Of a stretch of DNA of 15,429 nt, positions 3,733 through 5,289 are shown one piece after another (position 1 is the stretch's first letter; each line of letters begins with the position of its first letter). The notes beneath the pieces are model-generated. The model was not told the DNA's origin. It did not search any database and saw only the letters and a program-made list of their open reading frames with translations. Source of the stretch: a virus; IMG/VR virus record IMGVR_UViG_3300001477_000032, positions 1-15,429 of that record; one strand, written 5' to 3'. A program made the position numbers and the translations under genes.

Positions 3733-5289
3733 ATGATTTAGAAAATTGTAACTACTGTAATTCCACTTTTAGTACCTATTGTAATAATCGCTCTCTTATG
3801 TCTTGTAATTACCTTGATTGGTAAAGCCATGTATAAGAAATCTCCGCCAAATATGGCAATGGTTGTAACTGGACCTTTTGGAAATAAAACAATTATTGGT
3901 AAAGGTTGTTTTGTAATTCCTATTCTTGAAAGAGTAGACTTCCTTTCTCTTGAAAATATGCAATCAGACTTCACATCTAAAGATGACATCCCTACAAAAG
4001 ATGCTATTAATATTTTAGTAGATGCGGTTGCTAACTTTGCAATTTCAACTGACCCGAAGGTTCTTCCAAAAGCTGCCGCAAAATTCTTAGGTAAGAAACC
4101 AAAGCAAATTGAGGAAATTGTAAGACCAGTTCTTGAAGGTAATATCCGAGAAATTATTTCTCAAACAACTTTAAAAGAACTTATTCAAGGTGATAAAAAG
4201 ATTATCGCAGAAAGAATCATTGAAAATGTTACTCCAAATCTTCGAGATATGGGTCTTGAATTAACAACTTTTAATATTCAGAATTTCAAAGATAAAAATG
4301 GAGTAATTGATAACTTAGGTCTCCAAAATACAGTTCAAATTAGTAAAGATGCTGCTATTTCTAAAGCAAAAGCTGAACAAGAAATTGCAGTTGCTGAAGC
4401 TAACGCGCGAAAAGCTGCTAATGAAGCTCAGATTGCTGCCGCAACTGAAATTGCAGAAAGAGAAAATAAGCTTACAATTAAAAAAGCTGAATTAAAGAAG
4501 CTTGAGGATATTAAGAAAGCGGAAGCTGATGCTGCTTATGAAATTCAGCAACAGGAACAGCAAAAAACAATCGAAATTGCAACTGCTGATGCAAAACTTG
4601 CAAGACAAGAAAAAGAAATTGACTTACAGGAACGCGAAGTTAGTATTAGAGAACGTAAACTTGAAGCCGAAGTTAAGAAAACAGCAGAAGCTAAAAAGTA
4701 CGCTGCTCAACAGGAGTCTGATGCAAATCTTTATGCAACTCAAAAGAGTTCTGAAGCTGATTTATTTGAAAGACAAAAGAAAGCTGAAGCCGAACAGTAT
4801 GAAACAGAGCGACGTGCGGAAGCTCAAAAAGCTAAAGCTGAAGCTGAAAAATTTGCAAAGATTCAGGAAGCAGAAGCTATTAAAGAGACTGGCGCTGCGG
4901 AGGCTGAGGCTATTAAGGCTAAAGGTGCCGCAGAAGCTGAAGCTATTAGAGCTAAAGCAACCGCTGAAGCTGAAGGTTTGTTAAAGAAAGCTGAAGCTAT
5001 GGAAAGATATGGCGAAGCAGCTCGTGAACAGCAAAAACTAGACGCGTTAAAGATTTACTTTGAACAGCTACCCGCAATTGCTGAAGCTATTGGTTCAGGC
5101 TATGCAAATGTTGAAAAGATGGTTATGTTTGGAGATGATTCTTCAAAATTAAGTGGTAATATTATTAATAATATTACTCAAGTTTCTGAAGGTCTTAATG
5201 AATCACTTGGTATTGATTTAAAATCTTTAATGTCTGCTTTCATTGGTGGAAAAATCGTTGATACAAATCATACTGAAGCAACTGAGTAA
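3733..5289 (+). CDS. flotillin-like SPFH/Band-7 protein with N-terminal transmembrane anchor; third codon is TAG (sense)
   Basis: GGAG at 3723..3726, 6-nt spacer, then ATG 3733. The frame reads M-I-TAG-KIVTTVIPLLVPIVIIALLCLVITLIGKAMYKKSPPNMAMVVTGPFG. That is the membrane helix followed by a Y-K-K-x-P-P-N-x-A-x-V-x-T-G motif, as in bacterial FloT/YuaG. The track only found a TTG at 3814, which would delete the anchor. The body is an SPFH domain followed by a long coiled coil with AEAEAIKAKGAAEAEAIRAKATAEAEG flotillin-type repeats. TAA stop. Confidence 0.75.

Follow-up and report, generated by a model that had tools for sequence, protein, structure and literature searches.

An N-terminal TAG codon as a possible translational gate on a flotillin gene in a TAG-recoded phage

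The flotillin gene in a 15,429-nt stretch of viral DNA (IMG/VR record IMGVR_UViG_3300001477_000032, positions 1 to 15,429; hereafter the window) has a single in-frame TAG, at codon 3, ahead of its membrane anchor. The source is an uncultivated phage of about 140 kb that is TAG-recoded, and comparison of reading frames and homologues indicates that the anchored flotillin is obligatorily dependent on decoding of this codon, most likely as glutamate. We hypothesize that the TAG is a selected translational gate, shutting off flotillin synthesis until the infected cell decodes TAG, and put the probability of this reading at roughly 0.5. The gene and the signals around its start are as follows (labels such as L002 denote related loci):

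3723–3726, + strand: Shine-Dalgarno sequence GGAG, 6 nt 5′ of ATG 3733, also present in L002, L027, L028, L029 and L062
3733–5289, + strand: FloT-like flotillin (SPFH) gene, 518 codons, stop codon TAA at 5287–5289
3739–3741, + strand: in-frame TAG, flotillin codon 3; neither the gene nor the central block has another
3742–3822, + strand: N-terminal membrane-anchor segment K4–G30, a hydrophobic run in the translation, reachable only via the TAG
3829–3831, + strand: in-frame ATG, M33 of the MYKK motif, without a Shine-Dalgarno sequence and an unlikely alternative start

The 5′ end of the gene reads ...AAAAAGGAGAAAAAA ATG ATT TAG AAA ATT GTA..., with the spacer AAAAAA between GGAG and the ATG at 3733–3735, ATT next and the TAG third. 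Past the TAG the frame continues as K4-IVTTVIPLLVPIVIIALLCLVITLIG-K31, 27 mostly hydrophobic codons (the hydrophobic run proper, codons 5–30, comprises 26 residues), and then enters the SPFH domain. Only two in-frame starts lie 3′ of the TAG, TTG 3814 (codon 28) and ATG 3829 (codon 33); inspection of the sequence found no GGAG- or AGGA-type motif 5′ of either, and internal initiation was ruled out for want of a Shine-Dalgarno sequence at both. An initial annotation, made from the letters of the window, had described this layout of ribosome-binding site, Met-Ile-TAG and transmembrane helix and had judged the downstream starts poor, and both descriptions hold. Frameshifting past the TAG was also rejected: the +1 frame meets TAA after four codons, and the −1 frame closes after about 27 codons without ever entering the flotillin frame. 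A cis-acting recoding element of the SECIS or PYLIS type fared no better, as positions 3668–3790 fold worse than shuffled sequences (z = +1.83) and have no Rfam match; Rfam yielded zero matches anywhere in the window.

The helix itself is a family trait. Among 7,820 flotillin homologues found, N-termini were compared in the best 120, phage and bacterial, and all 120 have an N-terminal hydrophobic helix before the MYKKAPPN motif, as do all related loci; M33 is likewise kept in all listed homologues, standard-code ones included. Between lineages the helix region shows hydrophobic-for-hydrophobic substitutions with the frame intact. Homologues starting at the 3829 methionine and lacking the helix would, according to the initial annotation, make the position of the TAG incidental; the two database proteins that start at MYKK are truncated gene calls, from L029, where MVSMVF-TAG-KLVV... 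lies upstream of MYKK, and from L030, where an uncalled ATG opens MFMFQIIF..., so this refuting condition does not hold. Because the helix is present in all homologues and neither frameshifting, an internal start nor RNA structure offers a route round the TAG, full-length flotillin must require readthrough of this codon. The need of the anchor for TAG decoding, also proposed at the outset, is thereby borne out at the level of sequence, and the anchored protein appears to be the only plausible flotillin product.

The wider window leaves little doubt about the code. Reading TAG as sense raises its long open reading frame content from 4,611 to 6,167 codons and joins fragments at both window ends into long genes:

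1–2722, − strand: 5′ part of the tape-measure protein gene, 16 in-frame TAGs, in the TAG-dependent late gene set on the left
12232–12504, + strand: holin of the lysis cassette, TAG at codon 84
12566–13252, + strand: lysin, 3 TAGs, at codons 4, 48 and 150
13268–15429, + strand: lysin, 12 TAGs, codons 3 and 8 among them

With TAG read as sense, open reading frame cover rises from 0.63 to 0.89, and in L002 the complete tape-measure gene, of 2,880 codons, contains 63 TAGs. Holin and lysin frames pass through TAG to TAA or TGA, TAG is not used as a terminator, and all ten genes of the central block end in TAA. That block (2909–12137; 2,838 codons) holds a single TAG, at flotillin codon 3, in keeping with the earlier count of one in about 3,000 codons. 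The phage of the window is thus TAG-recoded, with its central block almost wholly compatible with the standard code.

The product of the TAG-containing frame is recognizably a flotillin. It matches Pfam Band_7/SPFH (PF01145) over residues 37–215 (E = 1.7e-24), human flotillin-1 and flotillin-2 chains (E about 1e-44, to 3e-44) and the NCBIfam FloT model NF058507 (E = 5.9e-74; 250 bits, equivalog cut-off 700). The flotillin C-terminal family PF15975 scores 23.6 bits, below its gathering score of 27, and many close homologues carry it. The predicted layout—an N-terminal membrane segment, SPFH/Band_7, a long Ala/Glu/Lys-rich coiled coil and a possible flotillin C-terminal region—is shared with bacterial FloT (YuaG) and eukaryotic flotillin-1/2; unlike those proteins, the window gene is phage-borne, variably present in its phage family, below the FloT equivalog cut-off and near a vault-like gene. 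The closest cellular flotillins (66–73% identity) come from Lachnospiraceae/Blautia metagenome-assembled genomes of ruminant and other herbivore guts, suggesting both host range and gene source; the host of the phage is probably a member of the Lachnospiraceae in herbivore guts. Within the phage family flotillin is accessory, many members being without it. No isolated relative was found: 50,697 phage records gave no nucleotide match, and the best protein matches are at most 43% identical.

The N-terminal TAG recurs in nine assemblies, the window plus eight, drawn from different samples in IMG/VR, JGI, ENA and Logan and representing four lineages, and is the sole TAG of the gene in each. It occupies the same codon 3 in L002, L034, L035 and L036 (97–98% protein identity; contigs of 140, 107, 58 and 48 kb), in L027 (89% amino-acid identity) and in L028/L062 (80–81%, reading M-L-TAG-K), and lies at codon 7, in the aligned N-terminal column, in L029 (77–80% identity). 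Between TAG-bearing lineages, fourfold degenerate sites of flotillin are 46–66% identical, indicating that synonymous sites are near saturation. As a yardstick for the family, a TAG is still TAG in the homologous gene in 98% of pairs at ≥95% identity, 46% at 85–95% and 26% at 70–85%, so the rough probability of retention in L027, L028 and L029 together is ~0.03 if the three are independent and ~0.06 if L028 and L029 are sisters. Retention above the family average is therefore suggested by these comparisons, if not strongly. The prior for a single TAG falling in codons 2–5 of 518 is ~0.8%, for a case picked post hoc. Phages further removed that also carry flotillin have a locally standard code and a flotillin gene free of TAG.

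Flotillin appears to share a transcription unit with a TAG-free gene upstream:

2834–2862, + strand: sigma70-type promoter-like site, TTGATA-17-TATAAT with TG, 11/12 consensus matches; a putative promoter
2909–3667, + strand: metallophosphatase (lambda-type Ser/Thr phosphatase/ApaH-like; Pfam Metallophos, E = 5.8e-15, and NCBIfam), first gene of the unit, 0 TAGs
3691–3706, + strand: conserved 16-nt motif CATTGAAAACTAAATA, just 5′ of the flotillin ribosome-binding site, one copy in the window
5301–5329, + strand: intrinsic-terminator-like 12-bp hairpin with T-run, closing the unit

No terminator lies between the phosphatase and flotillin genes. L028 has a counterpart of this arrangement, with TTGATT-17-TATAAT at the same place, a 14-bp hairpin after flotillin and, again, no terminator between the two genes. 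A promoter and terminator shared with the TAG-free phosphatase gene would fit a translational delay within one transcript. The corresponding block is TAG-free in L028, L030 and L031 too, inserted endonuclease-like genes aside, as expected if the block is translated while TAG still stops; flotillin would then be the one gene held back.

If TAG terminates, ribosomes loaded by the strong Shine-Dalgarno sequence would release fMet-Ile and yield zero flotillin; once the infected cell decodes TAG, they would make the full protein (M-I-E/Q-K...) with its membrane helix, SPFH domain and coiled coil. A single codon would in this way uncouple flotillin translation from the transcript common to the TAG-free phosphatase and tie it to the same code switch as the TAG-rich tail and lysis genes. 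One possible purpose would be that a scaffold able to remodel membranes does not enter the membrane before the lysis phase. We infer the timing (transcribed early, decoded later), the selected placement and the biological reason. Support for the gate comes from the codon being the sole TAG in an otherwise TAG-free unit, from its above-average retention and from its standing at the best position for a stop: a block at codon 3 would be optimal because it wastes nothing and leaves no truncated membrane fragment. A fuller statement—glutamate decoding without an obvious suppressor tRNA gene of the phage's own, combined with a conserved codon-3 TAG as a selected lock that holds back a host-derived flotillin, transcribed with standard-code genes, until the switch licensing tail and lysis proteins—is doubtful as a whole.

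Several observations weigh against the gate. Flotillin has no TAG in two recoded relatives, so a gate would be dispensable: in L030 (74% identity), whose tape-measure gene has 60 TAGs, it starts MFMFQ and has a CAA close to the site, and in L031 (76% identity), where lysin and endonuclease are recoded, it starts MSLTG.... Whether homologous phages keep the TAG, the check that the initial annotation had proposed, thus has a divided answer: it persists as the sole TAG in four lineages and is missing from these two. The TAG-bearing sequences may form one small clade of single origin, with about three independent retentions. Over 60 kb of the L002 contig, flotillin excluded, codons 2–5 hold no excess of TAG (2 observed, 1.6 expected, p = 0.47), and a general 5′ TAG design was set aside as not significant, even though the lysins (codons 3, 4 and 8) and a deoxynucleoside monophosphate (dNMP) kinase (codon 2, L222) have early TAGs. 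The TAG-free flotillins of L030 and L031 and the lack of a general 5′ bias of TAGs weaken the initial impression that the placement is deliberate. Promoter-like sites occur in the window at chance level (81 found versus 78 expected in shuffled sequence), and the sequence scanned yielded neither a suppressor tRNA nor a release factor or any other component of a switch. Certain genes of the replication region in this genome (ThyX-like, RecJ, NrdD) also contain TAG, so decoding may already run in the middle phase, and the delay would shrink.

The strongest competing explanation holds that the TAG is a neutral sense codon for Glu (or Gln): a GAG-to-TAG or CAG-to-TAG change at a weakly constrained N-terminal residue became fixed a single time, in the forebear of a small clade, and has not been lost since, with flotillin needed only after decoding begins. 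We regard this as a serious possibility, somewhat short of even odds. It accommodates the TAG-free flotillins of L030 and L031, the lack of 5′ enrichment and the presence of TAG in several gene classes of the genome, and because homologues often have Glu at position 2–3, a TAG read as Glu there would be synonymous. Nor is chance retention rare: of 19 columns of synonymous Gln codons, 6 show one and the same codon across the five flotillin sequences. Neutrality sits less easily with the absence of a second TAG from the 517 other flotillin codons in four lineages, despite synonymous saturation and a TAG share of 25% among GAA, GAG and TAG codons in late genes; family TAGs turn over faster than the one in flotillin, and the TAG-free state of the whole block argues that it is translated while TAG still stops. 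That the flotillin body is TAG-free although the gene already needs TAG decoding is odd under the gate as well, and could reflect selection against extra TAGs, cassette exchange with standard-code phages or an early short isoform.

Such an isoform is at the heart of another explanation, that ATG 3829 or TTG 3814 yields an early anchorless flotillin and the anchored form follows the switch. A gene body free of TAG in all lineages would make sense if it were translated without decoding; both internal starts, however, are without an SD-like motif, M33 lies within MYKKAPPN, which is conserved in all listed homologues including those of standard-code bacteria and so is not evidence of a start, and no homologue naturally lacks the anchor. 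SPFH proteins, moreover, assemble on membranes through their N-terminal anchor, as established, for example, by flotillin cage structures (PMC11260169). We consider two products quite improbable, and the soluble form suggested in the initial annotation is likewise without support, M33 being simply a residue that the family conserves. An artefact of assembly or sequencing, or a pseudogene, is barely credible: its appeal is only that TAG is a stop under the standard code, whereas the codon is shared by nine assemblies from different samples, which excludes sequencing error, the remainder of the gene shows no damage, its substitutions being conservative and its identity 77–98%, and the late genes are recoded throughout.

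To identify the residue encoded by TAG, we scored TAG columns by the residues of homologues at ≤80% identity, leaving out the homologues' own TAGs. Across 107 TAG columns of the L002 contig (IMGVR_UViG_3300021400_001206, which also comprises loci L114, L161, L222 and L456 and whose flotillin is 98% identical to that of the window), Glu scored 117 bits and Gln 72, a difference (E minus Q) of +45 (bootstrap 29 to 61); true codons, sampled in equal number, gave −74 for Gln and +100 for Glu. An independent set of 66 TAG columns from the head-gene/structural region (L456) gave +53, against −54 where the codon is Gln and +67 where it is Glu, and at the 21 conserved columns among these 66 the residue was Glu in 20, Gly in 1 and Gln in none. 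In the window, TAGs at codons 3, 8, 36 and 60 of a lysin align with Glu only. A RuvC-like resolvase (L161 15899–16387, − strand; phrog_827, E = 1.6e-16) has TAG-TAG where every homologue has E-E or E-D, and its family profile aligns the first TAG to Glu66 of E. coli RuvC (1HJR, E = 1.6e-6). Glu66 belongs to the four catalytic acidic residues of RuvC, and the E66Q variant is inactive. Together, the alignments make glutamate the most likely meaning of TAG in this phage family.

A minority of TAG columns are Gln-like; either Gln was replaced by Glu there, CAG to TAG being an easy transition, or decoding is somewhat ambiguous. TAG as Gln (genetic code 15) was suggested by CAA or CAG near the flotillin site in L030 and L033 and by depletion of CAG in late genes; the alignment tests favour Glu, and the depletion was discounted because G-ending Lys and Glu codons are equally rare in late genes. 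The tape-measure protein proved too divergent (51% identity) to serve as a guide. Flotillin homologues often start ME.., MLE.. or MKE.., placing Glu at position 2–3, so the product probably begins M-I-E-K...; database proteins P0001–P0003, translated with table 15, read MIQK. If TAG is confirmed as Glu, gene callers using table 15 place the wrong residue at every TAG of such phages. We found no report of TAG reassigned to Glu in any phage in the literature searched, and the only phage reassignments that Borges et al. (10.1101/2021.08.26.457843) report are TAG to Gln and TGA to Trp.

There is no tRNA gene in the window, in 80 kb (1–20565, 25943–46305 and 100309–139781; more than half) of the 139.8-kb L002 contig or in 67 kb of a 134-kb relative (loci L116, L175, L211, L291, L447 and L527), and ARAGORN found no tRNA-Sup(CTA) in 366 related loci totalling 5.5 Mb. 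Decoding by a suppressor tRNA, with a before and an after, is an assumption of the initial annotation. Suppressor tRNAs are present in only 35–40% of such phages (Borges et al., 10.1101/2021.08.26.457843), and the phAss-1 group, of similar genome size, carries a tRNA-Sup(CTA) for Gln and 36 tRNAs (PMC10607447).

Stop-codon recoding in phages is well documented (Ivanova 2014; Borges et al. 2021/2022, 10.1101/2021.08.26.457843; Peters et al. 2022, PMC9523058; phAss-1 group, PMC10607447), and Borges et al. proposed that recoded stops control the translation of late and lysis genes, the reasoning being that a protein interrupted by in-frame stops has to wait for a change of code. Both the phenomenon and the regulatory idea are therefore already known. 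The window resembles known recoded phages in having TAG-rich late tail and lysis genes beside a block compatible with the standard code, and departs from them in that one conserved codon-3 TAG is the sole recoded codon of a gene within an otherwise TAG-free operon; the recoding literature that we examined holds no discussion of positional, N-terminal gating by a recoded stop. Unlike in the phages of Borges et al. and phAss-1, TAG aligns with Glu rather than Gln, and 80 of 140 kb contain no tRNA gene. New here are a conserved single N-terminal TAG within an operon of standard code, its occurrence in a phage flotillin that neighbours a vault-like protein and RNA-repair genes, the evidence for TAG as Glu and the lack of a visible tRNA gene in most of the genome. 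Recoding as a late-gene timer rests on bulk codon statistics, and a flotillin whose whole dependence lies in one N-terminal codon offers a minimal test case. The side result on glutamate, drawn from two independent gene sets and a catalytic residue, may matter more.

As in amber-codon conditional expression—phage amber mutants in sup hosts, or lambda induction dependent on a non-canonical amino acid (PMC11980383)—an early TAG makes output hinge on a decoding tRNA; unlike amber mutants and engineered switches, the TAG of the window is natural, inherited across diverged lineages and set in a genome where TAG routinely serves as a sense codon. Undecoded, the flotillin 5′ end is formally a two-codon minigene, with a strong Shine-Dalgarno sequence and Met-Ile-stop. 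The bar minigenes of lambda, AUG AUA UAA, have the same form. The dipeptide is not conserved, being Met-Leu in L028, while in L029 the stop comes after six codons. Neither tRNA sequestration nor toxicity came to light, and no search aimed at them was made. TAG means Glu in the nuclear code of peritrich ciliates (NCBI table 30), a eukaryotic code in which TAA is also reassigned to Glu; here the bearer is a phage, TAG alone is reassigned, and genes end in TAA or TGA.

The motif at 3691–3706 belongs to a 16–17-nt form, aCaTTGA(A/C)AAYTAAATA, that lies 2–27 nt 5′ of the flotillin Shine-Dalgarno sequence in recoded and standard-code phages alike: the window, L002, L027, L028, L062, L029, L031 and L033, and the standard-code L001, L005, L044, L052 and L053. 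A sigma70 or T4-late-type promoter was rejected on the basis of this spacing, a missing −10 element in several loci and no recurrence in the genome. Candidate roles for the motif are those of a gene-specific promoter, an operator or an edge of the cassette.

In order, the ten genes of the central block encode a metallophosphatase, flotillin, an RlaP-type nucleotidyltransferase, a small open reading frame, an 833-residue vault-like protein, a 71-residue open reading frame, an RNA ligase, a zinc-ribbon protein, an AAA_33 polynucleotide-kinase-like protein and a second metallophosphatase. The 833-residue protein (6415–8916), separated from flotillin by the nucleotidyltransferase and a 50-codon open reading frame, has a major-vault-protein shoulder (E = 9e-24) and Vault_3 repeat domains and is 75–86% conserved in L028, L031, L114, L130 and L145; a vault/SPFH-like cage protein is unusual in a phage, and both the phage-borne flotillin and the vault-like gene are further documented here. 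An RNA-repair-type set (5381–6196 and 9256–12137), comprising RlaP, an RNA ligase with a PHA02142 OB domain, the AAA_33 polynucleotide-kinase-like protein and a metallophosphoesterase, lies directly 5′ of the holin and lysins and is kept across the phage family, with a Thg1-like gene replacing RlaP in L028. Gln codon usage is inverted in the vault-like gene (26 CAG, 2 CAA) and the RNA ligase gene (9256–10488; 8 versus 2) relative to late genes (91 CAA, 11 CAG), while 78–97% of the Lys, Glu, Leu and Arg codons are A-ending. This inversion may be an adaptation to host tRNAs in early genes.

Recoded codons also appear in other settings. A dNMP/guanylate-kinase-like gene (L222 17332–17907) begins ATG TAG AAA (M-TAG-K) just before its P-loop, making it a second gene of the genome with a TAG right after the start. 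A membrane protein of ~310 residues with 10–13 TAGs (L114 17615–18556, L136 18072–18995, L152 18098–19072) sits among standard-code replication genes (ligase, ThyX-like); heavy recoding here extends to a gene that belongs to neither the structural nor the lysis module. Endonuclease-like genes (MSKVIDMTGQTFGKLTVL..., DUF723) with 3–7 TAGs are inserted in the TAG-free block or the tape-measure region (L028 13983–14756, L031 4202–4924, L030 6688–7584), the tape-measure gene of L030 being split around one of them; they resemble recoded homing endonucleases that Borges et al. (10.1101/2021.08.26.457843) describe. In the holin, the one TAG (12481–12483) is codon 84 of 90, so the undecoded protein would lose its charged tail KPKKDI; L002 and L114 have the same TAG, and the L028 holin, free of TAG, has Ser there.

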